Source: Anaerolineae bacterium (GTDB taxonomy: Bacteria; Chloroflexota; Anaerolineae; JACIWR01). Taken from it: a stretch of 64,000 bases of DNA. Both the position numbers and the translations under genes were made by a program. The notes below the pieces were generated by a model that worked only from the letters and a program-made list of their open reading frames with translations, had not been told where the DNA came from and made no database searches. Of the stretch, positions 4,651-53,260 are shown piece after piece (the first letter of the stretch is position 1; every line of letters starts with the position of its first letter). Location: contig JANLFX010000001.1 in the NCBI GenBank assembly GCA_024653325.1, forward strand, positions 10,228-74,227. Direction: 5' to 3'.

Positions 4651-4797
4651 GATTGATCACCCCCTGATTTATAAAAAGGATACGATTATATTTGGGCTTC
4701 GAGGCTAAAACGGGTTACTTTCATTGTACTACAATTCTACGCGCATGGCAATCGGTGGTTGTAGCAAGCACTTACGGGGAACCACTGCAATCCTCAC

Positions 4798-4825
4798 TTG
4801 AATTTATGCAAAGTTATGCTATAAT
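4798..4825 (+). promoter_or_regulatory. Sigma70-like promoter upstream of the recombinase gene (TTGAAT, 16 nt spacer, TATAAT)
   Basis: -35 TTGAAT at 4798-4803 and -10 TATAAT at 4820-4825 in an AT-rich stretch. GGAGGA RBS at 4865-4870 before ATG 4878. Confidence 0.5.
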
Positions 4826-4877
4826 ATGACGATAGGAAAGTGTTTTATGGCGTGTTGGCCCCGGGGAGGATTGAGTC

Positions 4878-34469: not shown

Positions 34470-35795
34470 ATGGCTATTGCTCCGATCCAACGGGTACTGA
34501 TCATCGGTGCGGGCATCGCCGGCATGCAGGCCGCGCTGGACATCGCCAACGCCGGCTACGAGGTGGTGCTGGTCGAGCGTGAGCCGTCCATCGGCGGGCG
34601 CATGGCCCAGCTTTCGGAGACCTTTCCCACCCTGGACTGCGCGCAGTGCATCCTGACCCCGCGCACGGTCGAGGTGGGGCATCACGAGCACATCCGCTTG
34701 CGGACATATTCCGAAGTGGAGGCCGTTGAGGGCCAGTTGGGCGACTTCCGGGTGCGCATCCGTCGCCGCGCGGCCTACGTGAACTGGGAGGTATGCACCG
34801 GCTGCGGGCTTTGCCAGGAAAAGTGCCCGAAGAAGGTCATCTCCGATTTCGAGCGAGGTATTGGCCCGCGCAAGGCTATTTACACCTTGTCGCCCCAGGC
34901 AGTGCCCAACAAGCCGGTGATTGACCGCCAGAGTTGCATCTACTTCGAGCGCGGCAAATGCCGGGCCTGCGAGAAGTTCTGTCCCACGGGAGCCATTGAT
35001 TTCGAGCAGGAGGACGCCATCATCGAGGAACGGGTGGGGGCCATCATCGTGGCCACCGGCTACGACCTGTATCCGCTGTCGTTGCTGGGTGAGTACGGCT
35101 ACGGTGAGGTGCCCGACGTGATTGATAGCCTGGCCTTCGAGCGACTGCTTTCGGCCTCCGGGCCGACAGCGGGCCAGGTACGGCGTCCCTCCGACGGCGC
35201 AGAGCCGAAAGAGGTGGTGTTTATCCAGTGCGCCGGCTCGCGGGATCCCGAACTGCACAAGCCCTACTGCTCGAAAATCTGTTGCATGTACACGGCCAAG
35301 CACGCCATGCTCTACAAGCACAAAGTGCACGACGGCCAGGCCTACGTCTTCTACATTGACATCCGTTCCGCGGGCAAGCGCTACGAGGAATTCGTGCAGC
35401 GGGCGATGGAGGAAGAGCGCGTGCTGTACGTGCGCGGCAAGGTGAGCCGCGTCTTCCGCGAGAACGGCAAGGTCATGGTCTGGGGTACGGATACCCTCAG
35501 CGGGCAAAATGTGGAGGTGGCCGCCGATCTGGTAGTCCTGGCCCCGGCCATGGTGCCGAAAGCGGGATCGGACGTGGTGGCGGAGTTGCTGGACCTGGCG
35601 ACTGACGAACACGGCTGGTTCACCGCAGCGGAGGCGAACCTCCAGCCGGTGGAAACAAAACGAGCGGGAGTGTTCCTGGCCGGGGCAGCGGTGGGGCCCA
35701 TGGACATCCCGGAGACGGTGGCCCAGGCCAGTGGCGCGGCGGCGCAGGTGCTCAGCCTGTTCGCGCAGTGGGCGGAAAGGAACGGGAATGCGTAA
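34470..35795 (+). CDS. hdrA: HdrA-like FAD oxidoreductase with inserted ferredoxin domain but no N-terminal or C-terminal cluster domains
   Basis: GAGIAGMQAALDIANAGYEVVLVE is the FAD site. The inserted 2x[4Fe-4S] ferredoxin is CTGCGLCQEKCP...CRACEKFCP. CAGSRD...YCSKICCMY also present. Confidence 0.8.
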   Translation: MAIAPIQRVLIIGAGIAGMQAALDIANAGYEVVLVEREPSIGGRMAQLSETFPTLDCAQCILTPRTVEVGHHEHIRLRTYSEVEAVEGQLGDFRVRIRRRAAYVNWEVCTGCGLCQEKCPKKVISDFERGIGPRKAIYTLSPQAVPNKPVIDRQSCIYFERGKCRACEKFCPTGAIDFEQEDAIIEERVGAIIVATGYDLYPLSLLGEYGYGEVPDVIDSLAFERLLSASGPTAGQVRRPSDGAEPKEVVFIQCAGSRDPELHKPYCSKICCMYTAKHAMLYKHKVHDGQAYVFYIDIRSAGKRYEEFVQRAMEEERVLYVRGKVSRVFRENGKVMVWGTDTLSGQNVEVAADLVVLAPAMVPKAGSDVVAELLDLATDEHGWFTAAEANLQPVETKRAGVFLAGAAVGPMDIPETVAQASGAAAQVLSLFAQWAERNGNA

Positions 35796-37593
35796 AATCG
35801 GCATTTTCGTCTGTCACTGCGGACTCAACATCGCCGGCACCATTGACGTGCAGCGGGTGGTGGAGGAAATCAAGAAGTACCCCGGCGTGGCCTTCGCCGC
35901 CGACTACAAGTACATGTGCTCGGACCCCGGCCAGGCGCTCATCCGGCAGGCCATTGCCGATTATGGGCTGGACGGCATCGTGGTCGCCGCCTGTTCACCG
36001 GCGATGCACGAGGTGACTTTCCGCAAAGCGGCTCGCGCGGCGGGGGTCAACCCCTATCTGACCGAGATCGCCAACATCCGCGAGCAGATAAGCTGGGTGC
36101 ATCAGACGCAGCCCGAAGAAGCGACACGCAAGGCTATCGAGACCATCGCGACCATCGTCGAGAAGGTGCGCTACGACGAAGCATTGGTGCCTTTCAGCCT
36201 GCCGGTGGTCAAGCGGGCGCTGGTCATCGGCGGAGGCATCGCTGGCATGACGACGGCGTTGCACATCGCCGACGCCGGTTATCCGGTGGTGCTGGTCGAG
36301 CGGGAGGCGCAGCTCGGTGGAAAGATGCGTCAGCTTTCGGGGCTGTACCTCAACTTCGACGCCGCGCCCGATCTGTTGGAAACCAAAATCGCGGCGGTGA
36401 TGCAGCATCCCAACATCCAGGTGCTTACCAATGCTGAAGTAGTAGAGCTTGGTGGATACGTTGGCAACTTCACCGTTAAGATCAGTTCCAGGTTCCAGGT
36501 TCCAGGTTACAAGTTACAAGTTCCAGGTTCTGAGATAGCCCAATCAGGAATAAACCCTCAACCTGAAACCCTGCAACCTGAAACCCTGCAACCTGAAACC
36601 CCGCAACCCGAAACTTTCACCTTCGACATCGGCGCTATCGTGGTCGCCACCGGCTTCGATCTGCTGCCCAAGTCCGAGCTGGGCGAATACGGCGGCGGTC
36701 GCCCACCGGACGTGATTGACGGCCTGCAGTTCGAGCGGATGCTGGCCGAGGGTGAGATTCGTCGTCCCTCCGACGGAGCGGTGCCGAAAGAGGTGGTGTG
36801 GGTACAGTGCGCCGGTTCCCGCGACCCCGAATTGCACATGCCCTACTGCTCGAAGATATGTTGCATGTACGTGGCCAAGCAGGCCATGGCCTACAAGCAG
36901 CGCGTCCCCGACGGCCAGGCCTACGTCTTCTACATTGACATCCGTTCCCAGGGCAAGGGCTACGAGGAATTCGTGCAGCGGGCGATGACTGAGTACGACG
37001 TGCTTTACCTGCGCGGCAAGGTGGCCCGCGTTTTCGAAGAGGATGGGCGGGTGGTGGTGTACGGTGTGGATACTCTCAGCGGCAAGGCGGTCGAGGTGCA
37101 GGCTGATTTGGTGGTGCTGGCCACGGCGGTGGTACCCAGCGCCGGGGCCCGCGACCTGGCCCAGCGATTGCGTGTCTCCACCGACGAGTACGGCTTCTTC
37201 TCCGAGGCGCACCCCAAGCTGCGCCCCGTGGAGAGCCTGACGGCGGGCATCTTCTTGGCCGGAGCGGCCCAGTTCCCCAAGGACATCCCGGAGACCGTGG
37301 CCCAGGCCAGCGGGGCGGCAGCCAAAGTGTTGGGCCTGTTCGCCCAGCGGGAGATGGTACAGGAGCCGACCATCGCTTTCGTAGACGAGGAGTTGTGCGC
37401 CGGCTGCGGACTGTGCGTGGCCGCCTGCCCCTACGAGGCGCGGGTAATGCATCCCTGGAAGCCCATCGCCGTGGTGCAGACGGCGTTGTGCCAGGGTTGC
37501 GGAGCGTGTGTGGTGGCCTGTCCCAACAAGGCCAGCTCGCTGCGCAATCTGTCTACGGAGCAGTTGCTAACCATGATGGAGCCGGTGTTGTGA
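35788..37593 (+). CDS. hdrA: Second HdrA-like subunit: N-terminal Cys-rich domain, FAD domain with a repeat-encoded linker in place of the inserted ferredoxin, and a C-terminal 2x[4Fe-4S] ferredoxin
   Basis: ATG 35788 has an AAAGGAACGGGA SD and overlaps the hdrA1 stop (ATGCGTAA). Motifs IFVCHCGLNIAG...VVAACSP, GGGIAGMTTAL, CAGSRD...YCSKICCMY and CAGCGLCVAACP...CQGCGACVVACP. Confidence 0.8.
   Translation: MRKIGIFVCHCGLNIAGTIDVQRVVEEIKKYPGVAFAADYKYMCSDPGQALIRQAIADYGLDGIVVAACSPAMHEVTFRKAARAAGVNPYLTEIANIREQISWVHQTQPEEATRKAIETIATIVEKVRYDEALVPFSLPVVKRALVIGGGIAGMTTALHIADAGYPVVLVEREAQLGGKMRQLSGLYLNFDAAPDLLETKIAAVMQHPNIQVLTNAEVVELGGYVGNFTVKISSRFQVPGYKLQVPGSEIAQSGINPQPETLQPETLQPETPQPETFTFDIGAIVVATGFDLLPKSELGEYGGGRPPDVIDGLQFERMLAEGEIRRPSDGAVPKEVVWVQCAGSRDPELHMPYCSKICCMYVAKQAMAYKQRVPDGQAYVFYIDIRSQGKGYEEFVQRAMTEYDVLYLRGKVARVFEEDGRVVVYGVDTLSGKAVEVQADLVVLATAVVPSAGARDLAQRLRVSTDEYGFFSEAHPKLRPVESLTAGIFLAGAAQFPKDIPETVAQASGAAAKVLGLFAQREMVQEPTIAFVDEELCAGCGLCVAACPYEARVMHPWKPIAVVQTALCQGCGACVVACPNKASSLRNLSTEQLLTMMEPVL
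36484..36614 (+). repeat. In-frame tandem-repeat insert inside hdrA2 ((AGGTTCC)x6 then (AACCTGAAACCCTGC)x3.5), encoding QVPGYKLQVPGSEIAQSGINPQPETLQPETLQPETPQPET
   Basis: The repeat arrays are in the nucleotide sequence. Unit lengths 7x6=42 and 15 keep the frame. The position matches where HdrA1 carries its ferredoxin insert. Confidence 0.8.
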
Positions 37594-37731: not shown

Positions 37732-37797
37732 AGCATGGCGAGCCGGGATGGCGGACAGGGCCGTCCGCCGCTACACCTCTCGCTTGAGGAGCGAAAC

Positions 37798-39208: not shown

Positions 39209-39772
39209 ATGGAGAAAACGCTCAAGTCGTACCGTTCAGTAGCCACTTTGCCCGATGGAACTCAGGTGATCTTACGTCCCCTGCAACAAAGTGATGGGTC
39301 CCGCCTGCTGGACATGTTCAAAAGGGTCAGCGAAGGCGACCTGGATTACTTCCGCTCTGACGTGCGCAATCAGGAGGTGCTGGAGGAATGGGTGACCCAC
39401 CTGGACTACGACCGGGTCTTCCCCCTGGTCGCCGTGTGCGATGACCGCATCGTGGGGGACGCGACCTTGCACTTCGGCACCGGGCCGCACCACCACATCG
39501 CTGAGGTGCGCATCTTCCTCGTTGAGGAGTTTCGCCGGCGGGGGCTGGGTACTCTCATGCTGCAGACCCTGGTGCAACTGGCCAAGAGGATGGGCTTGTA
39601 TCAACTGGTGGCCGAGATCCCGATGGAGCAGAGTCATGTGATCAAGGCGTTCAAGGCCATTGGCTTCTCGTCCAAGTTCATCCGCGAAGACTACTTCATG
39701 ACCCCCGACGGCCTGACCCACGACGTGGTCGTGCTCACCCTGCGCCTGGTGGACCGCACGGGGGAGTTCTGA
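39209..39772 (+). CDS. GNAT-family acetyltransferase
   Basis: VRIFLVEEFRRRGLGTLMLQTLVQLAKRMG is an acetyl-CoA binding motif. Confidence 0.7.
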   Translation: MEKTLKSYRSVATLPDGTQVILRPLQQSDGSRLLDMFKRVSEGDLDYFRSDVRNQEVLEEWVTHLDYDRVFPLVAVCDDRIVGDATLHFGTGPHHHIAEVRIFLVEEFRRRGLGTLMLQTLVQLAKRMGLYQLVAEIPMEQSHVIKAFKAIGFSSKFIREDYFMTPDGLTHDVVVLTLRLVDRTGEF

Positions 39773-40381: not shown

Positions 40382-43300
40382 TTGGGTTCCGAGAGCGACA
40401 GCGTTGTCAGATCGGATTCAGTGGTAGGTGCCGTATTGGTCGTCGGCGGCGGCATCGGGGGCATGCAGGCCGCGTTGGACCTGGCTGGCGCCGGCTTCAA
40501 GGTCTATCTGCTGGAGGAGAAGCCAGCCATCGGCGGCATCATGGCCCAGTTGGACAAGACTTTCCCCACCAACGACTGCGCCATGTGCATCATGTCCCCC
40601 AAGCTGGTGGAATGTGGCCGCCACCTGAATATCGAGATCATCACTGGTGCCGAGTTGCAGGAACTGCGTGGCCAGCCGGGCAATTTCACCGCCGTGGTGC
40701 ATCAGCGGGCCAGGTTTGTGGACCTGGACAAGTGCACCGGCTGCGGCGATTGCGCCCAGGCCTGCCCGGTGAAATTGCCGGACCTGTTTAACGCTGGCCT
40801 GGCGGAGCGTAAGGCCATCTACAAGCTCTACCCGCAGGCCACGCCTAACGCCTACGCCATCGAGAAACGGGGCACCTCCCCCTGCCGCCATGCCTGCCCT
40901 ATCCACCAGCGGGCCCAGGGCTACATCGCCCTCATCCGCGAACAGCGATACGCGGAGGCCTATCGCGTCATCAAAGAGGATAACCCCTTCCCCGCCATCT
41001 GTGGCCGCATCTGTAACCACCGCTGCGAGGATGAGTGCTCCCGCAACAAAGTGGACGAGCCAATTTCCATTATGGCCCTCAAGCGCTTCGTCGTTGACCG
41101 GGTGCAGGATATGGAGCGCGAGCCCATCACTCCCCCGCAGCGCATCCACGAGGAGCGCATCGCCATTGTCGGTTCCGGTCCGGCGGGGCTGACCGCCGCC
41201 CACGATCTGGTGAAAATGGGTTACGGGGTCACCGTCTTCGAGGCGCTGCCCGTGGCGGGGGGGATGATGCGCGTCGGCGTGCCCGAGTACCGCCTGCCCG
41301 CCAAGTTGATCCAACGCGAGATTGACGACATCCTGGCCCTGGGAGTGGAGCTCAAACTCAACACCCGCGTGGACGATGTGGACGCGCTGCTCAAGGACGG
41401 CTACGCCGCCGTGTTCCTGGCGGTGGGCGCGCACCAGGGCCGCAAGCTGCGCATTCCAGGGGCCGATTTGCCCGGCGTGCTGCTCAACACCGATTTTCTG
41501 CGCCAGGTGCGCCTGGGCGAGCGACCGGCGTTGGGCGAGCGGGTGTTGGTGCTGGGTGGCGGTAACGTGGCCGTGGACGTGGCCCGCACGGCGGTGCGCC
41601 TGGGGGCCAAAGAGGTGTACATGAGCTGCCTGGAAGGCCGCGAGAGTATGCCCGCCCATCCCTGGGAGATCGCCGAGGCCGAGGAAGAAGGGGTGCGCAT
41701 CTTTCCCGGGCGTACCTTCAAAGAAATCGTGGCCCGCGACGGTCGGGTGGCGGGGGTGCGCTGCTGGGAGGTGGACTTTCGCGGTTTCACCGCCGATGGC
41801 CGCCTGGACATGGACGAGTTCCCGGAGACAGAGCACATCATCGAGGCCGACACCGTCATCTTCGCCATCGGCCAAATGCCGGACCTGAGACTGCTGGGCG
41901 AGGACGGTCAGATCAGGATGACGCGACAGCGTACCATCGAAGTTGACCCGGAGACGCTGGTCACGGGCAAGCCGGGGGTCTTCGCCGGCGGGGACGTGGT
42001 GACAGGCACGGCTTTTGTGGTGGAAGCTATCGCCGCCGGACACAAGGCGGCCCGTTCCATTGACCGCTTCCTGCGGGGTGAGGAACTGGGCGCGCGCGAG
42101 CCGGTCCTGCAGCCCAAAGTCGAGCTGAGCGCGGAGGAGATTCGGGAGCGGCTGGAGCAGGGGGACATCGTGCCCCGGCCCCGGGCGCGAGCGCGCAATC
42201 TGCCCGTGGAAGAGCGCGTTAACAACTTCTGTGAGGTGAGCCTGGGTCTGAGCGAAGAGGAAGCTCTGGCGGAGGCGCAGCGCTGTCTCTCCTGCGGGAT
42301 TTGCTCCGAATGTCTGGAGTGTGTTTACGCCTGTAAAGCTGGGGCCGTGAACCACGAGATGACGGACCAGGTCCGCGAGTTGAACGTGGGGGCCGTGATC
42401 CTCACCCCCGGCGTGGAGCTCTTCGACGCCCGTCTCAAGGGCGAGTACGGTTACGGCTATTATCCCAACGTGGTGACCAGTATCGAGTTCGAGCGCATCC
42501 TCTCCGCCTCGGGGCCTTTCGGCGGGCACGTGCAGCGTCCTTCGGACGGCAAAGAGCCAAAGCGCATCGCCTGGTTGCAATGCATTGGCTCCCGCGACGC
42601 GGCCTGTGGGCAGGATTACTGCTCCGCCGTGTGTTGTATGTACGCCATCAAAGAGACCATCATCGCCAAAGAGCACCTGCCTGGCGTGGAGACGACGGTC
42701 TTCTTCCTGGACATCCGCGCCTTCGGCAAGGACTTCGACAAGTACTATGAGACAGCCAGGACCCGGCATGGGGTGCGTTTTATCCGCAGCTTTGTCTCCT
42801 CGGTGAAGCAGGTGCCGGGCACGAAGAACCTGCGCATCACCTACGTGGGCGAGGACGGGGAACTGCGCGAGGAGGAGTTCGACCTGGTGGTGCTCTCCGT
42901 CGGGCTGCGGCCCACGGCATCGGCGCAGGAGATGGCTCGTCGGCTGGGGTTGCAGCTCAATCGCTTCGGCTTCTGCGAGAGCGAGGCTTTCGCCCCCACG
43001 GAGACGACGCGGCCCGGCGTGTTCGTCGCCGGGGCCTTCGGCGAACCGAAGGACATCCCGGAGACGGTGGTAGAGGCTTCCTGCGCGGCAGCCCATGCCT
43101 CGCGTTTGCTGGCCCCTGCGCGCGGCACGTTGACGCGGGTCAAAGAGTACCCGCCAGAGCGGGATGTCTCCGATGAGGAGCCGCGTGTGGGCGTTTTCAT
43201 CTGTCATTGTGGCATCAACATCGGCGCCGTGGTGGACGTGCCCCAGGTGGTGGAGTACGCTAAGACGCTGCCCGGGGTGGCCTATGCCGAGCACAATCTC

Positions 43301-44869
43301 TACACCTGCTCTCAGGACACGCAGCAGCGCATCAAGGAGCGCATCGAGGAGTACGGGCTGAACCGCGTGGTGGTGGCTTCCTGCACGCCGCGCACTCACG
43401 AGCCCCTGTTCCAGGATACGCTCCGCGAGGCCGGGCTGAACCCTTACTTCTTCGAGATGACCAATCTGCGCGAGCAGGATTCGTGGGTGCACCGTGCTTT
43501 TCCGGAACTGGCCACGCTCAAGGCCAAGGAGCTGGTGCAGATGGCGGTGGCCAAAGCGCGATGGCTGCGGCCCTTACCCCGCCTGCGTTTCGACCTGGTG
43601 CACAGTGCCCTGGTCATCGGCGGGGGGCTTTCCGGGATGACGGCGGCGCTGTCCATCGCCGACCAGGGCTATCCGGTGCATCTGGTGGAACGGGAGCCGG
43701 AGCTGGGCGGTCATCTGCGGCATATCCACTACGGCCTCGGCGAAGAGGACCCTCAGCGTCTGTTGCGCGAGACCATCGCGCGCGTGGAAAGCCATCCGCG
43801 CATCCATGTTTACAAGAACAGCGAGATAACGGACATCTCCGGCTACGTGGGCAAGTTCCAGACCACGCTGGCTTCCATGGACGGCCAGCAGACCACGGTG
43901 GAGCATGGGGTGGTAGTGGTGGCCACGGGGGCCAAAGCGGTGGAGCCGACCTCGTATTTGTACGGCCAGGACGAGCGGGTGCTGACCCAAGTGGAGCTAG
44001 AGGAGCGATTGGCCCAGAAAGACGGGTCGCTGGCTCAGGCGGACACGGTGGTCATGATCCAGTGCGTGGAGTCCCGGGACGAGCAACGCCCCTATTGCAG
44101 CCGCATCTGCTGTTCGCAAGCCATCAAGAACGCGCTGCGCCTCAAGGAGTTGAACCCGCGGGCCCGCGTCTACGTCCTTTACCGCGACATTCGCGCCTAC
44201 GGCTTCCGTGAGCTATACTACCAGCAGGCTCGCCAGGCGGGAGTGGTCTTCCTCCCATATGACGCGGAGGACAAGCCCCGTGTGGAAGTGGCGGATGGGC
44301 GGCTACGGGTAGAAGCGACCATGGTGGGCATGGTGGGCATGGCGGGTGAGGTGCTGACGTTGGAGCCCGATTACCTGGTCCTCAGCACCGGCATTGAACC
44401 GGGCGACAACAGCGCGCTGGCCCAGTTGTTGAAGGTGCCTCTCAACGAGGACGGTTTCTTCCTGGAGGCGCATGTCAAGCTGCGGCCTCTGGATTTCGCC
44501 GTGGACGGGGTGTATTTGTGTGGCCTGGCCCATTCCCCGAAGTCGGTTGAGGAGTCCATGGCCCAGGCCCACGGGGCAGCCATTCGGGCAGTGACCATGC
44601 TCTCCCGCGAGTACATCGAGACCCCGGGCACGGTGGCCACCGTCAATGAGCGGCTGTGCAGCGGCTGCGGGTTGTGCGTCGCCGCCTGTCCCTACGACGC
44701 GCGCCGGATAGATGAGGAGCGGCACATCGCTGAGGTCATCACCGTGCTCTGCCAGGGATGCGGGGCCTGCGTGGTGGCCTGTCCCAACGGAGCCAGTCAG
44801 CACCTCGGTTTCGAAATGCGGCAGGAATTGGCTAAAATAGATGCGGCGCTGAGTTATGCGGAGGCGTGA
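40382..44869 (+). CDS. Giant fusion oxidoreductase: an HdrA-like FAD domain split by a GltD/NfnB-like NAD(P)H-flavin module, followed by a second complete HdrA-like unit
   Basis: 1495 aa with a TTG start after AGAGGTG. HdrA FAD motif VVGGGIGGMQAALDLAGAGF. Ferredoxin CTGCGDCAQACP. GltD-type CRHACPIH...GRICNHRCEDECSR and IAIVGSGPAGLTAAHDL. Also CLSCGICSECLECVYAC and CIGSRD...YCSAVCCMY. The second unit has VFICHCGINIGAVVDV, LVIGGGLSGMTAALSIADQGY and a C-terminal CSGCGLCVAACP...CQGCGACVVACP. Confidence 0.75.
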   Translation: MGSESDSVVRSDSVVGAVLVVGGGIGGMQAALDLAGAGFKVYLLEEKPAIGGIMAQLDKTFPTNDCAMCIMSPKLVECGRHLNIEIITGAELQELRGQPGNFTAVVHQRARFVDLDKCTGCGDCAQACPVKLPDLFNAGLAERKAIYKLYPQATPNAYAIEKRGTSPCRHACPIHQRAQGYIALIREQRYAEAYRVIKEDNPFPAICGRICNHRCEDECSRNKVDEPISIMALKRFVVDRVQDMEREPITPPQRIHEERIAIVGSGPAGLTAAHDLVKMGYGVTVFEALPVAGGMMRVGVPEYRLPAKLIQREIDDILALGVELKLNTRVDDVDALLKDGYAAVFLAVGAHQGRKLRIPGADLPGVLLNTDFLRQVRLGERPALGERVLVLGGGNVAVDVARTAVRLGAKEVYMSCLEGRESMPAHPWEIAEAEEEGVRIFPGRTFKEIVARDGRVAGVRCWEVDFRGFTADGRLDMDEFPETEHIIEADTVIFAIGQMPDLRLLGEDGQIRMTRQRTIEVDPETLVTGKPGVFAGGDVVTGTAFVVEAIAAGHKAARSIDRFLRGEELGAREPVLQPKVELSAEEIRERLEQGDIVPRPRARARNLPVEERVNNFCEVSLGLSEEEALAEAQRCLSCGICSECLECVYACKAGAVNHEMTDQVRELNVGAVILTPGVELFDARLKGEYGYGYYPNVVTSIEFERILSASGPFGGHVQRPSDGKEPKRIAWLQCIGSRDAACGQDYCSAVCCMYAIKETIIAKEHLPGVETTVFFLDIRAFGKDFDKYYETARTRHGVRFIRSFVSSVKQVPGTKNLRITYVGEDGELREEEFDLVVLSVGLRPTASAQEMARRLGLQLNRFGFCESEAFAPTETTRPGVFVAGAFGEPKDIPETVVEASCAAAHASRLLAPARGTLTRVKEYPPERDVSDEEPRVGVFICHCGINIGAVVDVPQVVEYAKTLPGVAYAEHNLYTCSQDTQQRIKERIEEYGLNRVVVASCTPRTHEPLFQDTLREAGLNPYFFEMTNLREQDSWVHRAFPELATLKAKELVQMAVAKARWLRPLPRLRFDLVHSALVIGGGLSGMTAALSIADQGYPVHLVEREPELGGHLRHIHYGLGEEDPQRLLRETIARVESHPRIHVYKNSEITDISGYVGKFQTTLASMDGQQTTVEHGVVVVATGAKAVEPTSYLYGQDERVLTQVELEERLAQKDGSLAQADTVVMIQCVESRDEQRPYCSRICCSQAIKNALRLKELNPRARVYVLYRDIRAYGFRELYYQQARQAGVVFLPYDAEDKPRVEVADGRLRVEATMVGMVGMAGEVLTLEPDYLVLSTGIEPGDNSALAQLLKVPLNEDGFFLEAHVKLRPLDFAVDGVYLCGLAHSPKSVEESMAQAHGAAIRAVTMLSREYIETPGTVATVNERLCSGCGLCVAACPYDARRIDEERHIAEVITVLCQGCGACVVACPNGASQHLGFEMRQELAKIDAALSYAEA

Positions 44870-46478: not shown

Positions 46479-46529
46479 GGAACACGTCCCGTACATAGAG
46501 AGTGAAAAGGATTTAAGGAGAGTGTGACT

Positions 46530-47834
46530 ATGCTTACAGGTGTTGACGTTAAGTCGCTGCCGTTGGCGCTGCCCGATGGTGTGGATTACGACGAATACAT
46601 CATCGGCACGTATTTGGTGTCCTATCCGAAGAAGATTTCCGTGCCCAAAATGGCCCCGGCCCTGGCCATCGAGCAGAGCACGGGGACCTGGGTACCCGTT
46701 CCAGGGGAGACGCCGGAAGTGCGCCGTAAGCATGTGGCCAGGGTCATCGGGGTGTACGAAGTGCCCGATTACGAGTATGGGCTACCGCCGGAGGTGGAGG
46801 AGCGCACTTACGTCATCCAGATCGCTTTCCCGGTGGTCAACATCGGCGCGCAGATACCGATGCTGCTGACTACCGTCATCGGCAATATCTCCATGGCCGG
46901 CAAGCTCAAGCTGGTAGACGTGCGCTTTCCCAAGAAGTACGTGGACGGCTTCAAAGGGCCGAAGTTCGGCATCCCTGGCGTGCGTCAAATACTGGGCGTC
47001 CCCAAGCGACCGTTGTTGAATAACATGATCAAGCCTTGCACCGGGTACACGCCGGAGGTTGGCGTGGAACTGTTCCGGGCGGCGGCGCTGGGTGGCTGCG
47101 ACATTATCAAAGATGACGAACTGCTGGCCGATGCCTCGTTCAACCGCGTGCTGGCCCGGGTCAAGTTGTACATGGAGGCCGAACGCCAGGTTTACGAGGA
47201 AACCGGCGAACACACTTTGTACACGGTCAACGTTTCCGATGAGATTCCCCAGGTGTTCGAGAACGCCAGGCGGGCGGTGGAGCTGGGTTGCAACGCGATC
47301 ATGGTCAACTTCCTGGCCGTGGGCCTCCCCGTACTACGGGCCCTGGCCGAGGACCCGGCCATCAACGTGCCCATTCTCGCGCATATGGATGTGGCCGGCG
47401 CGTTTTATGAATCGCCGTGGCACGGGATCAGCTCGCACATCGTGCTGGGCAAGCTGCCGCGTCTGGCCGGAGCCGACATCGTGGTTTTCCCCGCACCATA
47501 CGGCAAGGCTCCCGTGCTGCCGGAGAAGTTCGTGAACGTGGCCAAGAATCTGAGCTTCCCATTGTATAACCTGAAACCGGCTTTTCCCATGCCCAGTGGA
47601 GGTATTACCCCGGCCATGGTGCCGCAGGTGATCAAAGACTTGGGGACTGAGATCGTGATTGGGTCAGGTGGAGGCATCCACGCTCACCCGCACGGGCCCA
47701 TCGCCGGAGCCAAAGCCTTCCGCCAGGCTATTGATGCTACCATGCAAGGGCGTCCGCTGGAGGATGCGGCGGCCGAATTTGAGGAGCTGCGCGTGGCGTT
47801 GGAAACCTGGCAGGAACCGTTTATTTCATTCTGA
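46530..47834 (+). CDS. RuBisCO-like protein (form IV RuBisCO large-subunit homolog)
   Basis: ATG 46530 lies 9 nt after AAGGAG. The track GTG at 46524 is too close to the SD. Large-subunit fold motifs PCTGYTPEVGVELFRAAALGGCDIIKDDE. Lacks a canonical carboxylase context. Confidence 0.7.
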   Translation: MLTGVDVKSLPLALPDGVDYDEYIIGTYLVSYPKKISVPKMAPALAIEQSTGTWVPVPGETPEVRRKHVARVIGVYEVPDYEYGLPPEVEERTYVIQIAFPVVNIGAQIPMLLTTVIGNISMAGKLKLVDVRFPKKYVDGFKGPKFGIPGVRQILGVPKRPLLNNMIKPCTGYTPEVGVELFRAAALGGCDIIKDDELLADASFNRVLARVKLYMEAERQVYEETGEHTLYTVNVSDEIPQVFENARRAVELGCNAIMVNFLAVGLPVLRALAEDPAINVPILAHMDVAGAFYESPWHGISSHIVLGKLPRLAGADIVVFPAPYGKAPVLPEKFVNVAKNLSFPLYNLKPAFPMPSGGITPAMVPQVIKDLGTEIVIGSGGGIHAHPHGPIAGAKAFRQAIDATMQGRPLEDAAAEFEELRVALETWQEPFISF

Positions 47835-47854: not shown

Positions 47855-48508
47855 ATGTTAGTCTATGATCGAATGAGCCGCCATCCTATCACTGTAAATC
47901 CTGATGTGCCTATTGACGAAGCCCTGCACATTATGCGCGAGAACAAAGTGCGCCGTCTGCCGGTGGTGGATAAGCAGGGCAAACTGGTGGGTATCGTCTC
48001 GGAAAAGGATCTGCTGTATGCGTCACCCTCACCGGCCACCTCGCTCAGCATCCATGAGATCCACTACCTGGTCTCCAAGATCAAGGTCGCCGACGTGATG
48101 ACCAAAGAGGTGATCACCGTTGGGGAAAATGCCCCCCTGGAGGAAGCGGCACGGATCATGGCCGATCACAAGATCGGTGGCTTGCCGGTCATGCGCGACG
48201 GAACGCTCGTCGGTATCATCACCGAGACAGACCTGTTCAAAATCTTCCTCGAGCTGCTGGGGGCGCGGGAAGAGGGAGTGCGGCTGACGATGTTGATACC
48301 TGAACGGCCCGGCACACTGGCAACCATCACCCGTAATATTGCCGAAATGGGTGGCAATATTGTTTCACTGGGCACGTTCCTGGGTGAGGATCCTACCAAC
48401 CGTCTGATCACCGTCAAGGTGGCGGGCGTGCCCCAGGAAGAACTGGTGCGCAACATGACAGCGCTGGGCATGGAAATCGTAGACGCGAGGATGTGCCAGC
48501 GCTGTTAG
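47855..48508 (+). CDS. CBS-pair plus ACT domain protein
   Basis: Two CBS motifs, HPITVNPDVPIDEALHIMRENKVRRLPVV and VMTKEVITVGENAPLEEAARIMADHKIGGLPVM, and a C-terminal ACT-like segment. Confidence 0.75.
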   Translation: MLVYDRMSRHPITVNPDVPIDEALHIMRENKVRRLPVVDKQGKLVGIVSEKDLLYASPSPATSLSIHEIHYLVSKIKVADVMTKEVITVGENAPLEEAARIMADHKIGGLPVMRDGTLVGIITETDLFKIFLELLGAREEGVRLTMLIPERPGTLATITRNIAEMGGNIVSLGTFLGEDPTNRLITVKVAGVPQEELVRNMTALGMEIVDARMCQRC

Positions 48509-48665: not shown

Positions 48666-49088
48666 ATGTCCGAATTTGAGCCGCGCATAGTTGCCTTTCT
48701 GTGCAACTGGTGTACCTACACCGGCGCAGATCTGGCCGGCACCTCACGCATTCAATACCCGCCCAACGTGCGCATCATCCGTCTGATGTGTTCCGGGGGA
48801 TTAGACCCCATCTACGTGACCAAAGCCCTGCTGGAAGGGGCCGACGGCGTGCTTATCGGGGGTTGCCATCCGGGAGATTGCCACTATCAAAGCGGTAACT
48901 ACAAGGCCAGGCGGCGGGTGGCTATTCTCAAAAGCATCCTGGAGCAATTGGGCTTCGATCCCGACCGGGTGTGGCTGCGATGGATCAGTGCCAGCGAGGG
49001 CCAATACTTCGCCGAGACGGTGACGGAGATGGTCGCTGCCCTGAAGGAAAAGGGGCCCAATCCTATGCGCAATCTATGGGGTATGTGA
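48666..49088 (+). CDS. mvhD: MvhD/FlxD-like iron-sulfur protein (methyl-viologen-reducing hydrogenase delta-subunit family)
   Basis: VAFLCNWCTYTGADLAG...IRLMCSGGLDP...GADGVLIGGCHPGDCHY. Confidence 0.75.
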   Translation: MSEFEPRIVAFLCNWCTYTGADLAGTSRIQYPPNVRIIRLMCSGGLDPIYVTKALLEGADGVLIGGCHPGDCHYQSGNYKARRRVAILKSILEQLGFDPDRVWLRWISASEGQYFAETVTEMVAALKEKGPNPMRNLWGM

Positions 49089-49107
49089 GAATCACCGAGG
49101 TAGAAAT

Positions 49108-50238
49108 ATGCCGCTAAACGCTGTGCTTGAGGTCGAAGATAACATACTGGCCACCCTGGACACTTTCCTGCGAGGTCTTTTGGAGCACGGGGTAGTGGAG
49201 TACTTGCTAGTGCCCCAGGCAACATTGGCCGGTGATAATGTGGTACAAACGCTGGTGCACGATATGTCGCGCTTGCAGGCGGTGAATCCGGTGGCTCCGG
49301 TCTTGCCCGTCAATTCCGCCAAGCTGGTCTCTAAGTTGACGGTCAAGGGCGCGCCACGCCCGGTAGGGGTTGTGTTGCGCACCTGCGAACTCCGTGCTTT
49401 GGTGGAACTGGTCAAGTTGCAGCAGGCCAGCCTGGAGAACGTGACGGTCATCGTCGTGGACTGCCTGGGCACATACGAGGTGGCCGATTATGCTGCTTTG
49501 GTAGCGGCAGGCTGCGATCCCACGGCGGAGTTGTTGGCTCAGGTGAGGGATGGTGACCTGCATCCTCATGGAGGCTACAGCTTCCGTGCGGCCTGTCAGA
49601 TGTGCGAGTATCCTGTGCCCGATGTGGCGGATGTGCATGGGCCGGATATTCACCTGGGCTTGTTGGGCATGGATGGGCGGGTGTTGGTGACGGTGCGCGA
49701 TGACCTAGCGGAGCCTTTGGGATTGACACCGACCGCGATACCGGAGGGACGCAAGACCGTGGTCGAGGAGTTGATCCGCCGGCGGGCAGCCGAGCGCGAC
49801 CGGCGTTTCGCCGAGTTCCGCTCCCGGGTGAACGATGTAGAGGGTCTGTTGGCCCAATTTTCCACCTGCATTCGCTGTCACAACTGCATGGTAGCCTGTC
49901 CCATTTGCTACTGCAAGGAGTGTATTGCGCGCACAACTACTTTCGATCACGAGCCACGCCAATATTTTGAGTGGGCGGAACGGAAGGGCGTTGTGCGGAT
50001 GCCGGTGGATACCCTTATGTTCCACCTCACCCGCCTGAACCACATGGCGACCTCGTGCGTGGGCTGTGGCATGTGCACCAGCGCCTGCCCGAATGACATT
50101 CCGGTGAGCACGATTTTCCGTGCTGTCGGCGAGAAAGTGCAGGCTATTTTCGACTATGTTCCGGGGCGCAGTCTGGAAGAAGAGCTGCCCCTGGCGACGT
50201 TCCGCGAGGATGAGTTGACGGAGCTTGGAGAAAAATAG
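49108..50238 (+). CDS. FrhB/FdhB-family Fe-S flavoprotein-like subunit (F420-hydrogenase beta-like) with a C-terminal 2x[4Fe-4S] ferredoxin
   Basis: CIRCHNCMVACPICYCKEC and CVGCGMCTSACPNDIP. The N-terminal part has the FrhB_FdhB_N-like pattern. Confidence 0.6.
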   Translation: MPLNAVLEVEDNILATLDTFLRGLLEHGVVEYLLVPQATLAGDNVVQTLVHDMSRLQAVNPVAPVLPVNSAKLVSKLTVKGAPRPVGVVLRTCELRALVELVKLQQASLENVTVIVVDCLGTYEVADYAALVAAGCDPTAELLAQVRDGDLHPHGGYSFRAACQMCEYPVPDVADVHGPDIHLGLLGMDGRVLVTVRDDLAEPLGLTPTAIPEGRKTVVEELIRRRAAERDRRFAEFRSRVNDVEGLLAQFSTCIRCHNCMVACPICYCKECIARTTTFDHEPRQYFEWAERKGVVRMPVDTLMFHLTRLNHMATSCVGCGMCTSACPNDIPVSTIFRAVGEKVQAIFDYVPGRSLEEELPLATFREDELTELGEK

Positions 50239-50251
50239 TGGGGAGGTTATC

Positions 50252-50932
50252 ATGTCCGAGGAACTGATTCCGATTTACATCATGGGTAAACAATACATGG
50301 TGCCGCCTACATTGACGATTATGAAAGCTATGGAGTATGCCGGCTATCAGCTAATTCGAGGTGTGGGCTGCCGGGGCGGGTTCTGCGGAGCCTGCGCTAC
50401 AGTATATCGTCTGCCCGGCGATTATCGTTTGCAAATTGGCCTGGCCTGCCAGACCGTGGTCCAACCGGGCATGTACCTGGCGCAGATTCCCTTTTTCCCG
50501 GCGCAACGGGCGGCCTATCGTTTGCATGAACTGCAACCCACTTTCCAGACGTTATTCACCCTTTATCCGGAACTGATGCGTTGTCTTAGCTGCGGTACCT
50601 GCACCAAAGCATGTCCGCAGGACATTGATGTCAAGCAATACATGGCCGATGCCATGCGCGGCGACATCCACGCCGTGGCCGATCGCTCTTTCGATTGCAT
50701 CATGTGCGGGTTGTGCGCTGCTCGCTGCCCGGCTGAGGAAGCACAGTACAACATCGCTATTCTCTGCCGCCGCTTGTACGGCAAATATCTGGCTCCTAAA
50801 GCGAAGCACCTACTCGAACGGGTAAAAGAGGTTGAAGAAGGGAAGTGGGATGCAGCAGTGGAGGAATTGAAGGGCCTGAGCGAGGAAGAACTGCGCAAGC
50901 GGTACAATGCGCGAGATATAGAGCCGGAATGA
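50252..50932 (+). CDS. Succinate dehydrogenase/fumarate reductase iron-sulfur subunit
   Basis: ATG 50252 follows GGGGAGG. The N-terminal 2Fe-2S region is GVGCRGGFCGACA. C-terminal clusters are CLSCGTCTKACP and CIMCGLCAARCP. Confidence 0.8.
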   Translation: MSEELIPIYIMGKQYMVPPTLTIMKAMEYAGYQLIRGVGCRGGFCGACATVYRLPGDYRLQIGLACQTVVQPGMYLAQIPFFPAQRAAYRLHELQPTFQTLFTLYPELMRCLSCGTCTKACPQDIDVKQYMADAMRGDIHAVADRSFDCIMCGLCAARCPAEEAQYNIAILCRRLYGKYLAPKAKHLLERVKEVEEGKWDAAVEELKGLSEEELRKRYNARDIEPE

Positions 50933-50948
50933 GATAGGAGACGGGGAC

Positions 50949-52559
50949 ATGAGTTACACAGCGGAGATGCGGGAATCCATAAAAAGAGTAGAGGCTACCC
51001 GGCCTGCACGTCTTTCGGAAACGTGGCCGATGATGAGCCCCGCCGAGAAAAAGGAAATCCTGGAAAAATTCCATCCCGACTACATCCGCGAGGGGATGCG
51101 CGAGATCCGCGTCGGGGTGAGCAAGGGCCAGCGTATGCCGCTGGAATTGGCTGAGGTGATGGAAGGGCACAGCCATTTGCGCTCCGATAGCCTGGATTTG
51201 GAGCAGATTGACTACGACACCGACGTGCTGGTCATCGGCGGGGGCGGGGCGGGGGCCTCGGCGGCCATATTGGCCCGCGAGAACGGGGCGAAAGTCGTTT
51301 TGACCACCAAGTTGCGCTTTGGTGACGCCAATACCATGATGGCTCAGGGGGGCATCCAGGCCGCGGATAAGCCCAACGACTCGCCAGCCATCCATTATCT
51401 GGACGTGATGGGCGGCGGGCATTTCGCCAATGTGCCGGAATTGGTGGAGGCGTTAGTCAAAGACGCACCGCTGGTGATCAAATGGCTGGAAGATCTGGGT
51501 TGCATGTTCGACAAGGAGCCCGACGGCACGCTGGTCACCATCCACGGCGGTGGCACTTCTCGAAAACGGATGCACTCCGCCCGCGATTATTCCGGGGCAG
51601 AGATCATGCGCACCCTGCGCGACGAGGTGCGTAGCTATCCCGAGGACATCGTTGTCCTGGAGTTCTCTCCGGCCATCGAGCTCATCCTGGACGATAAGGG
51701 CCAGTGTGCTGGCGCGGTGCTCAAGAATCTGGAGACTGGTGAGCATTTGATAGTCCGGGCCAAATGCACGATTGTAGCCACCGGCGGCAGTGGACGGCTT
51801 CACTATCAGGGTTATCCCACCACCAACCACTACGGGGCGACCGGTGATGGCGTTGTGCTGTGCTACCGGGTGGGGGCGAGGCTAGCCTTTTTGGACACGA
51901 TGCAGTATCATCCTACTGGCGCAGCCTATCCGGAGCAAATCTTGGGCCTTTTGGTGACGGAGAAAGTGCGTGGGTTGGGCGCGCAGGTGTGCAATGTGGA
52001 GGGCAAACAGTTTGTCAATCCTCGGGAGACACGCGACGTAGAGGCCTCCGCTTTCATTCGGGAGTGTGTGGAGCGAGGCAAAGGCGTGCGCACGCCATCA
52101 GGGATGCAGGGGGTGTGGCTGGATTCGCCGATGATTGACATCATACATGGGCCGGGCACTATTGAGGCTGAGCTGCCGGCCATGGTTCGCCAATTTGGCC
52201 GCTTTGGTATTGACATAACTAAAGAGCCTATGTTGGTTTATCCTACTCTGCACTACCAAAATGGCGGTATCGCCTTGGATGTGCATGGTCGGACCAATGT
52301 TCCCAATTTATTCGTCGCCGGGGAAATCTCTGGCGGGGTGCACGGCCGCAATCGTTTGATGGGTAACTCTTTGCTGGAGATCACGGTATTCGGACGACGG
52401 GCAGGGCGGGCGGCTGCTTTGCAAGCCAAAGAGGTCAGTTTGGGTAAGCTCACCCTGGCCCACCTGGACAAATGGGAGCGCGAGCTGAAAGAAGCGGGGG
52501 TGGAACCCAAAATCGTCTCCCCCATTCTCTTGCCGGACTATACCCGCAAGGTGCGTTGA
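50949..52559 (+). CDS. Succinate dehydrogenase/fumarate reductase flavoprotein subunit
   Basis: FAD motif VLVIGGGGAGASAAILARENGAKV, plus MAQGGIQAA, VAGEISGGVHGRNRLMGNSLLE and an HPT-loop region. Confidence 0.85.
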   Translation: MSYTAEMRESIKRVEATRPARLSETWPMMSPAEKKEILEKFHPDYIREGMREIRVGVSKGQRMPLELAEVMEGHSHLRSDSLDLEQIDYDTDVLVIGGGGAGASAAILARENGAKVVLTTKLRFGDANTMMAQGGIQAADKPNDSPAIHYLDVMGGGHFANVPELVEALVKDAPLVIKWLEDLGCMFDKEPDGTLVTIHGGGTSRKRMHSARDYSGAEIMRTLRDEVRSYPEDIVVLEFSPAIELILDDKGQCAGAVLKNLETGEHLIVRAKCTIVATGGSGRLHYQGYPTTNHYGATGDGVVLCYRVGARLAFLDTMQYHPTGAAYPEQILGLLVTEKVRGLGAQVCNVEGKQFVNPRETRDVEASAFIRECVERGKGVRTPSGMQGVWLDSPMIDIIHGPGTIEAELPAMVRQFGRFGIDITKEPMLVYPTLHYQNGGIALDVHGRTNVPNLFVAGEISGGVHGRNRLMGNSLLEITVFGRRAGRAAALQAKEVSLGKLTLAHLDKWERELKEAGVEPKIVSPILLPDYTRKVR

Positions 52560-52586: not shown

Positions 52587-52602
52587 GCGGCATTCATGCC
52601 GC
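52587..52602. terminator. Bidirectional hairpin GCGGCATTCATGCCGC between convergent frdA and flavodoxin genes
   Basis: Perfect 16-bp palindrome that overlaps the flavodoxin stop codon. Confidence 0.45.
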
Positions 52603-53124
52603 TATAGTTCCTTCTTCAGCCTTCAGCGTATCAGCAATGGCCGCGGCCCAAGAGTTGATGGCTTCCCAGTCACGGAAGTCGCCGACCGGTGCTTTGATGC
52701 CCTTGACGAGCAGCTTCTCGGTTAGGCTGAGTTTCTTTGTATCCAACATGCCGTGGAATAAGGCGACGTCACGGGGGCGGATGCGGTCGGCGACGGGCTG
52801 TTGCGCCTCGGGGAAGCGCCAGCCTTTCACCAATTGTACCGCATCCCCCTCGCCCGTAGGTCCGCTGGAAAAGAGCCATACCAGCCGCTCGGCCAGTTTC
52901 TTCTCGTTAGCCTCCAGAAATTTTGCCGCCTCCTTACGCCATTGGCCTACGTAGACCGCGCTACCCAGCACCACCGCCTTGTACGGGCTCAGGTCGCCGA
53001 CACGATCCACCGGCAGCACGTCGGCATGGAAACCCGCCTCACGAAGCACCTGACCGATCTTTTCGGCAATCTCCGCCGTCGCACCATACTTGGTGGCGTA
53101 GGCCACCAGAACCTGAACGTCCAT
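52594..53124 (-). CDS. Flavodoxin
   Basis: ATG 53122-53124 is preceded by AAGGAGGAG with a 6-nt spacer. The track start at 53145 lies upstream of that SD. N-terminal FMN-binding motif VLVAYATKYGATAEIAEKI. Confidence 0.8.
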   Translation of the reverse strand: MDVQVLVAYATKYGATAEIAEKIGQVLREAGFHADVLPVDRVGDLSPYKAVVLGSAVYVGQWRKEAAKFLEANEKKLAERLVWLFSSGPTGEGDAVQLVKGWRFPEAQQPVADRIRPRDVALFHGMLDTKKLSLTEKLLVKGIKAPVGDFRDWEAINSWAAAIADTLKAEEGTIAA

Positions 53125-53260
53125 TTGATTCTCCTCCTTATGCATCTACAAAAGTCTTCGCTTTCTCACCCTTTATGCGCCTGTTTTATCCTCTCGTCAA
53201 TGCAGGGGGCGCATTTCACATGCTCCACGTCATACTCGGCGAGCAACTGCCCGAACCTGG

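Follow-up and report, generated by a model that had tools for sequence, protein, structure and literature searches.

The 64,000-nucleotide stretch analyzed here (the window) covers positions 10,228 to 74,227 of contig JANLFX010000001.1 from the Anaerolineae metagenome-assembled genome (MAG) GCA_024653325.1. It carries a four-gene operon encoding an MvhD/FlxD-type adaptor, a protein resembling the FdhB and ElpB subunits of Hdr-bound complexes, an FrdB-like iron-sulfur (Fe-S) subunit, and an FrdA/TfrA-like flavoprotein (Table 1), which together are considered below as a candidate soluble fumarate reductase with an Hdr-type electron supply. The original prediction, made by a reader of the letters and a list of open reading frames (ORFs), had described four tightly spaced genes with gaps of 13-20 nt; the ORF map of the plus strand gave the same coordinates, with gaps of 19, 13, and 16 nt. 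For the Fe-S subunit, the ATG at 50252 was preferred over a possible alternative TTG at 50225 because a 226-aa protein identical to the ATG product is present in the database (P0121; database proteins are numbered with the prefix P). At NCBI, the four proteins are the consecutive entries MCR4405341-44 of an Anaerolineae MAG and are labeled, in order, "hydrogenase iron-sulfur subunit," "4Fe-4S dicluster domain-containing protein" (twice), and "FAD-binding protein." In a promoter and terminator scan, sites were no commoner than in shuffled sequence, and operon boundaries were not obtained.

Catalytic subunits

The flavoprotein matched PF00890 at residues 92-475 (E 2.5e-71), and no Succ_DH_flav_C domain was found in it with Pfam. 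The top NCBIfam model was TfrA (NF004900), with 350 bits against a cut-off of 718 over profile positions 6-412 of 546, followed by an Sdh1-type model (285 bits) and NadB (TIGR00551; 269 bits against a cut-off of 452.75). The protein was aligned with Escherichia coli FrdA, SdhA, and NadB and with 83 relatives. Residues H321, T337, E338, R341, R362, H435, and R469 correspond to FrdA H232, T244, E245, R248, R287, H355, and R390, and these seven catalytic and dicarboxylate-binding residues are invariant in the 83 relatives, save E338, which is kept in 82. The position of the histidine that binds flavin adenine dinucleotide (FAD) covalently (FrdA His44) is Asn128 in the window protein and Asn in all 83 relatives, so the FAD is predicted to be non-covalent, as in one-way fumarate reductases; a true TfrA (P0451) has Gly there. 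Only 67 residues follow the R390 equivalent, compared with 189-211 in E. coli SdhA and FrdA and 154-211 across the references. The C-terminal helical domain is thus missing, and an N-terminal extension of about 90 aa with a conserved FHPD motif precedes the FAD fold.

Few full-length relatives at the 50% level were returned by a search of 1.84 billion representatives, and all full-length relatives examined have the N-terminal extension, Asn at the His44 site, a short C-terminus, and a TfrA score below threshold. In a rough neighbor-joining tree, the flavoprotein and its relatives form their own clade beside "short" proteins of about 400 aa, separate from TfrA (P0451, 765 bits), Sdh1-type SdhA, E. 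coli SdhA and FrdA, and NadB. The short sister proteins P0407, P0423, and P0424 (about 400-410 aa) lack both the N-terminal extension and the C-terminal domain; they carry Asn or Lys at the covalent-FAD position and keep all catalytic residues. An L-aspartate oxidase (NadB) identity, named beforehand among the outcomes that would undo the assignment, was rejected: the score lies under the cut-off, the NadB-specific Glu121 position is Gly or His in this family, and the protein did not cluster with E. coli NadB in the tree.

The Fe-S subunit has the [2Fe-2S] motif CRGGFCGACA at residues 40-49, with ligands C40, C45, C48, and C66, and two CxxCxxCxxxCP motifs; its cluster cysteines are invariant in 48 homologues. 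Pfam assigned Fer2 and Fer4_9 and no CCG domain. The protein scored under every SdhB model cut-off (dhsB, 21 bits against 88). Because a Foldseek search with its structural model was uninformative, the Fe-S family was aligned with E. coli FrdB using hhalign, and the two were collinear over all three cluster sites (95%, E 3e-8). The third cluster site has four cysteines, and a [4Fe-4S] rather than a [3Fe-4S] cluster is therefore expected. Direct evidence that the two subunits work together comes from P0382 (727 aa), in which the Fe-S subunit (residues 1-220; 38% identity, E 2e-49) is naturally fused to the flavoprotein (50% identity). The earlier assignment of the pair to the SdhB/FrdB and SdhA/FrdA types thus holds for the cluster motifs, the FrdB-like layout, and every FrdA catalytic residue; neither subunit counts as a canonical SdhB, TfrB, SdhA, or TfrA.

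Adaptor and FdhB/ElpB-like subunit

The product of the first gene is the MvhD/FlxD-type Fe-S protein that had been proposed. It matched PF02662 over residues 8-128 (E 4e-54; 182 bits against a cut-off of 22), scored 140 bits with the NCBIfam VhuD model and 181 bits with the HdrA2 C-terminal domain, and keeps all five cysteines (Cys 13, 16, 42, 67, and 72).

The second protein had been called FrhB/FdhB-like, and here the methods divided. In Pfam it has Fer4-type matches alone, without a match to the FrhB_FdhB N and C models, whereas phmmer against PDB sequences returned 7bkb_E (5e-22) and two related chains. Chain 7bkb_E is the F420-type FdhB of the Methanospirillum Fdh-Hdr-Fmd complex, and 8rvu_E comes from the Elp-Hdr complex. 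A family profile built from 48 homologues matched 9t1s_M (2.5e-38) and 7bkb_E (4e-35) over almost the entire length, and all 15 invariant cluster cysteines, a four-cluster set, aligned with those of Hdr-bound FdhB/ElpB. With an AlphaFold2 (AF2) model (pLDDT 75, pTM 0.75), Foldseek placed 7bkb_E and 8rvu_E on top and FrhB, Fsr, and HCAR folds (also Frh and Fdh) lower. Relatives are labeled "formate dehydrogenase subunit beta" at JGI. The kinship to FdhB/ElpB is therefore well founded in phmmer, profile, and Foldseek results, and an FrhB-like call was not obtained from Pfam; given the missing FrhB_FdhB match, the flavin/F420 site may be degenerate.

Membrane anchor search

As first claimed, no SdhC/D or FrdC/D gene is present in the window. 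A hydrophobicity scan found no anchor-like hydrophobic or transmembrane (TM) segments in any protein from fumA to the flavoprotein, and Pfam searches of every multi-TM ORF found no Sdh/Frd anchor family throughout the window; the multi-TM ORFs elsewhere belong to Vut_1, PMT, DUF2298, LGT, and similar, unrelated families. Among 68 related loci (numbered with the prefix L), 67 have no TM-rich ORF directly downstream of the flavoprotein gene on the same strand. The sole case is a 93-aa ORF with three hydrophobic segments directly 3' of that gene (L037:11639-11920), which may have arisen by chance or may encode a small membrane protein. In the window itself, a Flavodoxin_5/HemG-like flavodoxin gene (52594-53145, minus strand) converges with the end of the flavoprotein gene. 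It is probably unrelated, because L001 and L003, for which gene tables were examined, lack it at that position, although a flavodoxin might act as a low-potential acceptor.

Surrounding gene cluster

The genes from 31.6 to 52.6 kb are one supercluster, interrupted by a kinase/RuBisCO-like pair (Table 1). The HdrA fusion lies 3.8 kb from the operon and the hdrCBA sets and class I fumarase 11-17 kb from it, distances that the original prediction had given correctly. The NCBIfam fumarate hydratase equivalog scored 416 bits against a cut-off of 276, and both fumarase subunits pass their equivalog cut-offs. A tartrate dehydratase was rejected, the alpha model scoring 185 bits against a cut-off of 365.

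The 441-aa HdrA has the FAD core with an inserted ferredoxin domain. The 620-aa HdrA, with a likely true start at ATG 35788, has an N-terminal Cys domain, the FAD core, and a C-terminal 2x[4Fe-4S] domain. The HdrL-type protein is built of an HdrA core, an inserted GltD/NfnB-like NAD(P)-binding module, a second HdrA core, and a C-terminal 2x[4Fe-4S] domain; residues 158-668 matched PRK12771, "NAD(P)-binding protein," with 561 bits against a cut-off of 516. It resembles a fusion of the 441-aa-type and 620-aa-type HdrA paralogues. Its NAD(P)H module is inserted near the "inserted ferredoxin domain," the low-potential electron exit in methanogen HdrA.

The hdrB genes lie 9.5-15 kb upstream and are separate from the Fe-S subunit gene. 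HdrB1 and HdrB2 both keep the two CCG motifs with all ten cysteines, and HdrC1 and HdrC2 have two 4-Cys motifs each. HdrC2 and HdrB2 matched NCBIfam HdrC/HdrB and SdhE-like models, all under cut-off, and HdrB1 scored 188 bits with both CoB_CoM_SS_B and SdhE, again under the cut-offs. With scores under the methanogen equivalog cut-offs, these proteins are homologues rather than orthologues.

The kinase scored 323 bits with the XylB model (cut-off 380) and the RuBisCO-like protein 397 bits with an MtnW-type model (cut-off 409). The pair also occurs in L004 (95% identical). It looks like a lineage-specific insertion because HdrL is directly followed by [CBS]-mvhD in most related loci (square brackets mark genes present in part of the loci). 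A CBS-CBS(-ACT) gene stands just upstream of mvhD or the Fe-S gene in L001, L005, L006, L009, L013, L016, L017, L021, and L023, and its product may be a nucleotide-sensing regulatory subunit of the complex. The GNAT gene has the same position in L009, L035, L061, and L076.

Table 1. Genes of the operon and the surrounding supercluster, in window coordinates
Feature	Position	Strand	Details
MvhD/FlxD-type [2Fe-2S] adaptor protein	48666..49088	+	140 aa; PF02662
FdhB/ElpB-like Fe-S (possibly FAD) protein	49108..50238	+	376 aa; 15 invariant Cys
FrdB-like Fe-S subunit	50252..50932	+	226 aa; [2Fe-2S] and two 4-Cys [4Fe-4S] motifs
FrdA/TfrA-like flavoprotein	50949..52559	+	536 aa; PF00890; non-covalent FAD predicted (Asn128)
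Class I fumarate hydratase, two subunits	alpha 31628-32476, beta 32486-33046	+	Pfam Fumerase, Fumerase_C
hdrC1, hdrB1	33080-33487, 33599-34462	+	Pfam Fer4_8; CCG x2
Two HdrA paralogues	34470..37593	+	441 aa and 620 aa; NCBIfam HdrA2 498 and 594 bits
hdrC2, hdrB2	37735-38331, 38328-39185	+	Fer4_8/17; two CCG domains
GNAT acetyltransferase	39209..39772	+	Pfam Acetyltransf_1; between hdrB2 and HdrL
HdrL-type fusion	40382..44869	+	1495 aa; NCBIfam HdrA2 964 bits
FGGY sugar kinase and form-IV RuBisCO-like protein	44922-47834		XylB and MtnW-type models
CBS-CBS-ACT protein	47855..48508	+	Pfam CBS E 3e-40 and ACT domain

Related loci

Relatives are encoded in at least 583 species-representative genomes, mostly Anaerolineae MAGs. 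To compare gene neighborhoods, the window proteins were mapped onto the loci of the best 80 relatives (64-95% identity), a comparison that supplies the strongest support in this analysis. Almost all of these are from Anaerolineae, Anaerolineales, or Thermoflexales MAGs, with a few from Bacillota, one from Dehalococcoidales, and one from a "Desulfovibrio" MAG. In 74 of 76 loci, the Fe-S gene precedes the flavoprotein gene by no more than 2.5 kb, and in 56 the two adjoin directly (<200 nt). An upstream flank of 7 kb or more is available for 46 loci; of these, 45 carry HdrA-type genes on the same strand, 38 fdhB-like genes, 33 mvhD, 38 hdrC, and 18 hdrB. The coupling to HdrA that had been suggested from the distances in the window is thus far more strongly supported by this linkage than by the window alone. 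An fdhB-like gene is present in 32 of the 33 loci that carry mvhD, and the exact order mvhD-fdhB-like-FeS-flavoprotein was found in 31 of 56 loci.

Three layouts were recognized. The first is fumA-fumB-hdrC-hdrB-hdrA(441)-hdrA(620)-[CBS]-FeS-flavoprotein, as in L003 and L005; L001 has this layout with CBS-CBS-mvhD-fdhB-like inserted. The second is hdrA620-hdrC2-hdrB2-[GNAT]-HdrL-[CBS]-mvhD-fdhB-like-FeS-flavoprotein, and the third is HdrL-hdrA-hdrC-hdrA-mvhD-fdhB-like-FeS-flavoprotein, followed by more HdrL and mvhD copies. The supercluster of the window is the first and second layouts concatenated. The HdrA pair precedes the Fe-S and flavoprotein genes in L003, L005, L017-19, and L021, and in many loci [CBS]-mvhD comes right after HdrL. 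Fumarase genes stand at the head of the cluster in L001, L003, L005, L017-19, L021, L060, L079, and L083. In L060, from outside Chloroflexota, the order is fumA-fumB-malic enzyme-FeS-flavoprotein-hdrB-hdrC, an order that covers the entire reductive route between pyruvate and succinate.

A second, divergent fdhB-like gene (25-34% identity) lies between the Fe-S and flavoprotein genes in L049, L057, L058, L061, L066, L069, L070, L074, L076-L078, and L080, and the order fdhB-like-FeS-fdhB-like2-flavoprotein was found in 9 of 56 loci. A Bacillota MAG (L075:6954-16811) has the Fe-S/flavoprotein pair without Hdr or fumarase genes. A divergent gene for a PrpR-type sigma-54 regulator lies beside the pair, and after the pair come genes for UbiX, a UbiD-like decarboxylase, and two family-III CoA-transferases; in this setting the pair may serve another physiological purpose.

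Proposed mechanism

On this evidence, the operon probably encodes a soluble, anchor-less fumarate reductase that is fed by an Hdr-type machine and is most likely bifurcating; complex, wiring, donor, and bifurcation are read from gene content and homology. The soluble, HdrA-coupled enzyme of the original prediction is supported in silico by the active-site residues, the FrdB layout, the lack of an anchor, and the Hdr linkage. The Fe-S protein and the flavoprotein would form the reductase with non-covalent FAD, and its substrate would be produced from malate by the co-clustered class I fumarase. Electrons would come from the cytoplasmic Hdr-type machine and not from quinol. The MvhD and FdhB/ElpB-like proteins would be the arm that joins the catalytic module to the HdrA flavin, as it does in the Fdh-Hdr and Elp-Hdr complexes of methanogens, the Frd-like pair having replaced FdhA/ElpA on this arm, as its genomic position, that of FdhA, suggests. 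The HdrA paralogues and HdrL would supply the electrons, with NAD(P)H entering through the GltD/NfnB-like module of HdrL, and the Hdr flavin would split the electron pair, sending the high-potential electron to fumarate and the low-potential electron to ferredoxin, so that fumarate would pull the reduction of ferredoxin. The most likely overall reaction would be 2 NAD(P)H + fumarate + oxidized ferredoxin -> 2 NAD(P)+ + succinate + reduced ferredoxin. The potentials are +33 mV for fumarate/succinate and -320 mV for NAD(P)H (PMC5861303) and about -500 mV for ferredoxin (PMC2702500), which makes NAD(P)H-driven bifurcation a thermodynamically sensible reading.

A wider proposal is offered tentatively, as possible but the less likely outcome: the HdrA/HdrL complex, with this Frd clade docked through the FdhB-like/MvhD arm as its high-potential branch, may represent an uncharacterized class of bifurcating enzyme, and malate-to-succinate conversion may be the main quinone-free energy-conserving step in fermentative Anaerolineae and some Bacillota and Desulfobacterota.

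Several observations weigh against a bifurcating, Hdr-fed fumarate reductase. In the complexes of known structure, electrons enter HdrA through the MvhD/FdhB arm, and the use of this arm as an output to fumarate is an assumption. The 12 loci of the first layout have neither mvhD nor an fdhB-like gene, so the arm is not obligatory for the Frd pair. The HdrB proteins with intact CCG cysteines imply a disulfide-type substrate that the scheme does not need, and these CCG proteins are also homologues of SdhE, the "anchor" of type-E enzymes. The Frd-like subunits are not canonical members of SdhA/B or TfrA/B, and with the moderate AF2 model of the Fe-S subunit (pLDDT 74), Foldseek gave the [2Fe-2S] domains of NuoG/HydA-type proteins alone and returned no SdhB. 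In the window, the 2.9-kb kinase/RuBisCO-like pair and the CBS-ACT gene separate the operon from HdrL. The relatives found are all MAG-derived.

Alternative explanations

The main rival is a split thiol:fumarate reductase, which we consider unlikely. The Frd pair would dock on HdrB/HdrC, which would together stand for a split TfrB; a thiol (a DsrC/TusE-like protein, a lipoate-protein, or a small thiol) would be oxidized at the HdrB CCG clusters and regenerated separately by HdrA/MvhD. In a variant, HdrC-HdrB would merely relay the high-potential electron of HdrA to FrdB. Archaeal TfrB is reportedly an FrdB-like part fused with CCG domains, in the account attributed to Heim et al. 1998, and the NCBIfam TfrB model is likewise FrdB-like plus CCG. 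The genes hdrC-hdrB directly adjoin the Fe-S/flavoprotein pair in L024, L026, L027, and L060, and the symbiont cluster described below has the order frdB-frdA-hdrC-hdrB. Such an enzyme would also account for the complete CCG cysteines of both HdrB copies in the window, for the first-layout loci, which have hdrCB and two hdrA genes but lack mvhD and the fdhB-like gene, and for TfrA being the top-scoring curated family of the flavoprotein. However, hdrB is nearby in far fewer of the 46 flanked loci than HdrA-type or fdhB-like genes (18 against 45 and 38), and the genes right next to the Frd pair, both here and in 31 of 56 loci, are those for MvhD and the FdhB-like protein rather than hdrB. None of the cluster genes was recognized as encoding a thiol carrier, and coenzymes M and B (CoM/CoB) are absent from bacteria.

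The remaining readings are less likely. One, improbable in our view, is a stand-alone four-subunit oxidoreductase without bifurcation, in which the flavin of the FdhB-like protein would oxidize F420H2, another hydride donor, or ferredoxin and pass electrons to FrdB/FrdA, with MvhD as merely an extra cluster or an optional Hdr link. The FdhB/ElpB/FrhB relatives are F420-reacting, FAD-containing subunits (PMC12350162; Foldseek matches to Frh, Fsr, and Fdh), the tight four-gene unit recurs in the loci counted above, and fumarate reduction with any such donor is strongly exergonic, so that coupling is unneeded. On the other side, MvhD is known as an HdrA connector only (PMC2702500). Nearly every locus has HdrA-type genes along with the unit, and the Pfam FrhB_FdhB N and C models miss the window protein. 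To our knowledge, sulfate reducers with hdrL-mvhD-fdhB loci lack F420, which also speaks against this reading.

It is very improbable that the pair acts on another substrate (L-aspartate or an unsaturated acid such as mesaconate) or as a succinate dehydrogenase, with the fumarase link being indirect. The flavoprotein lies under every curated cut-off and in its own clade, the catalytic residues are common to NadB and FrdA, and the Bacillota pair beside UbiX/UbiD and CoA-transferase genes lacks Hdr and fumarase. Yet the dicarboxylate-binding and proton-transfer set is complete and kept across the 83 relatives (E338 in 82), the Glu121 position specific to NadB is not conserved as Glu, no nadA or nadC gene is nearby, and fumarase is co-clustered, together with malic enzyme in L060. 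In complex II, succinate oxidation depends on flavinylation, and a non-covalent FAD argues against it here.

A membrane-associated type-E succinate:quinone oxidoreductase or quinol:fumarate reductase, with an HdrB-like CCG protein as the SdhE-type amphipathic anchor, is the least credible alternative: SdhE and HdrB models scored alike on HdrB1 (188 and 188 bits) and HdrB2 (149 and 143 bits), and in type-E SdhB a second [4Fe-4S] cluster replaces the [3Fe-4S] cluster, but these scores are far under the cut-offs of 500 and 345, the CCG proteins always occur together with HdrC and HdrA, type-E SdhA retains a covalent His and a C-terminal domain that the flavoprotein lacks, there is no gene for SdhF, and most loci have no hdrB.

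Comparison with known systems

Archaeal TfrAB (Methanothermobacter) is similar to the window pair in being soluble and anchor-less, without the covalent-FAD histidine (Gly in P0451), in having a [2Fe-2S] and two 4-Cys clusters in its Fe-S part, and in its association with HdrB-type CCG chemistry. In contrast to TfrA, the window flavoprotein has an N-terminal extension and no C-terminal domain, falls in another clade, and scores 350 bits where the cut-off is 718; the Fe-S subunit has no fused CCG domain, HdrB is encoded by a separate gene missing in most loci, and there is no CoM/CoB.

The FdhAB-MvhD-HdrABC and ElpABC-HdrABC complexes (7BKB and 8RVU; PMC12350162) also have MvhD and an FdhB/ElpB homologue side by side, HdrA-linked and with the same 15 cysteines. 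The partner of the FdhB-like protein here would be the Frd-like pair and not FdhA/ElpA, the host is bacterial, and electrons would leave through the arm to an acceptor at +33 mV, whereas the known arm donates electrons of low potential.

A similar gene-order logic was found in tubeworm symbionts and Thioflavicoccus mobilis, in which an anchor-less frdB-frdA ("tfrAB") lies beside hdrC-hdrB-korDABC-hdrA-flxDCBA (PMC6315080, PMC11636981). Bifurcation to fumarate reductase and to ferredoxin/OGOR was proposed for these clusters, with support from co-expression (PMC6315080, PMC11636981; reviewed in PMC13147460), and the present proposal is therefore not new in kind. The comparison, made here by gene order, extends to an MvhD-like flxD and an NADH module. 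That module is FlxABC in the symbionts and not HdrL, there is no FdhB-like subunit, and the setting is an autotrophic reverse tricarboxylic acid (TCA) cycle with OGOR, as opposed to the fumarase of fermentative Anaerolineae. FrdABCDE of Hydrogenobacter thermophilus is described as a purified, soluble, five-subunit NADH-dependent fumarate reductase that is irreversible (Miura et al. 2008, via PMC13147460). By that secondary description and a subunit list from Aquifex, it is likewise soluble and multi-subunit, with FrdA/FrdB-like and extra flavoprotein and Fe-S subunits, whereas its genes are scattered and the description reports no MvhD, FdhB-like, or HdrBC subunits and no bifurcation.

The name HdrL comes from Desulfobacterium autotrophicum HRM2, in which this HdrA/glutamate-synthase fusion always has mvhD after it and, in four loci, fdhB as well (PMC2702500). 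The hdrL-mvhD-fdhB(-fdhA) loci thus share with the window the same fusion and the two genes after it (PMC2702500). In HRM2, fdhB is followed by the catalytic subunit of formate dehydrogenase, and in the window the fdhB-like gene is followed by the Frd-like pair. In sulfate reducers, QmoABC, with two HdrA-like paralogues, an MvhD-like domain, and the membrane subunit QmoC, probably feeds the soluble reductase AprAB, a 2x[4Fe-4S] protein with a flavoprotein of the fumarate-reductase superfamily, AprA, which reduces adenosine 5'-phosphosulfate. No FdhB-like subunit is found there, and AprA was not among the top NCBIfam matches of the window flavoprotein. Compared with FrdABCD and complex II, the catalytic residues and the logic of A and B subunits are the same, but here there is no anchor, covalent FAD, or C-terminal domain, and the third cluster is a 4-Cys one. 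An SdhA beside HdrA2B2C2 was noted in Culexarchaeia.

In the literature searched, which included papers on Chloroflexi and Anaerolineae, no description was found of the cluster, of an FdhB-like/MvhD arm on an Frd pair, or of the truncated Asn-type clade, and a literature search for "bifurcating fumarate reductase" found no characterized enzyme. The family is labeled merely "FAD-binding protein" and "4Fe-4S dicluster protein" and is therefore overlooked in metabolic reconstructions.

Significance

The energy released when NADH reduces fumarate equals that from the reduction of crotonyl-CoA, the founding reaction of the flavin-based bifurcation field. We know of energy conservation with fumarate only through membrane quinone chains. 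Anaerolineae are among the most abundant bacteria in anaerobic digesters and sediments and typically rely on hydrogen-consuming partners. If the proposed mechanism is correct, the few bifurcation reactions now listed would gain a further acceptor, and the co-reduction of ferredoxin by a soluble, Hdr-linked fumarate reductase would explain both energy gain and a supply of low-potential electrons for H2 in cytochrome- and quinone-poor Anaerolineae. The genes described here are a widespread candidate means of conserving energy through fumarate reduction where no respiratory chain takes part, and they would offer an experimental handle on the "TfrAB/Hdr-Flx" hypothesis, put forward for the reverse TCA cycle in vent symbionts.

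Other features of the window

Genes for an SNF2-family helicase, a XerC/D-type tyrosine recombinase, and a radical-SAM/SPASM protein were recognized at 1771-5768 and 18914-20140 and are unrelated to the operon.

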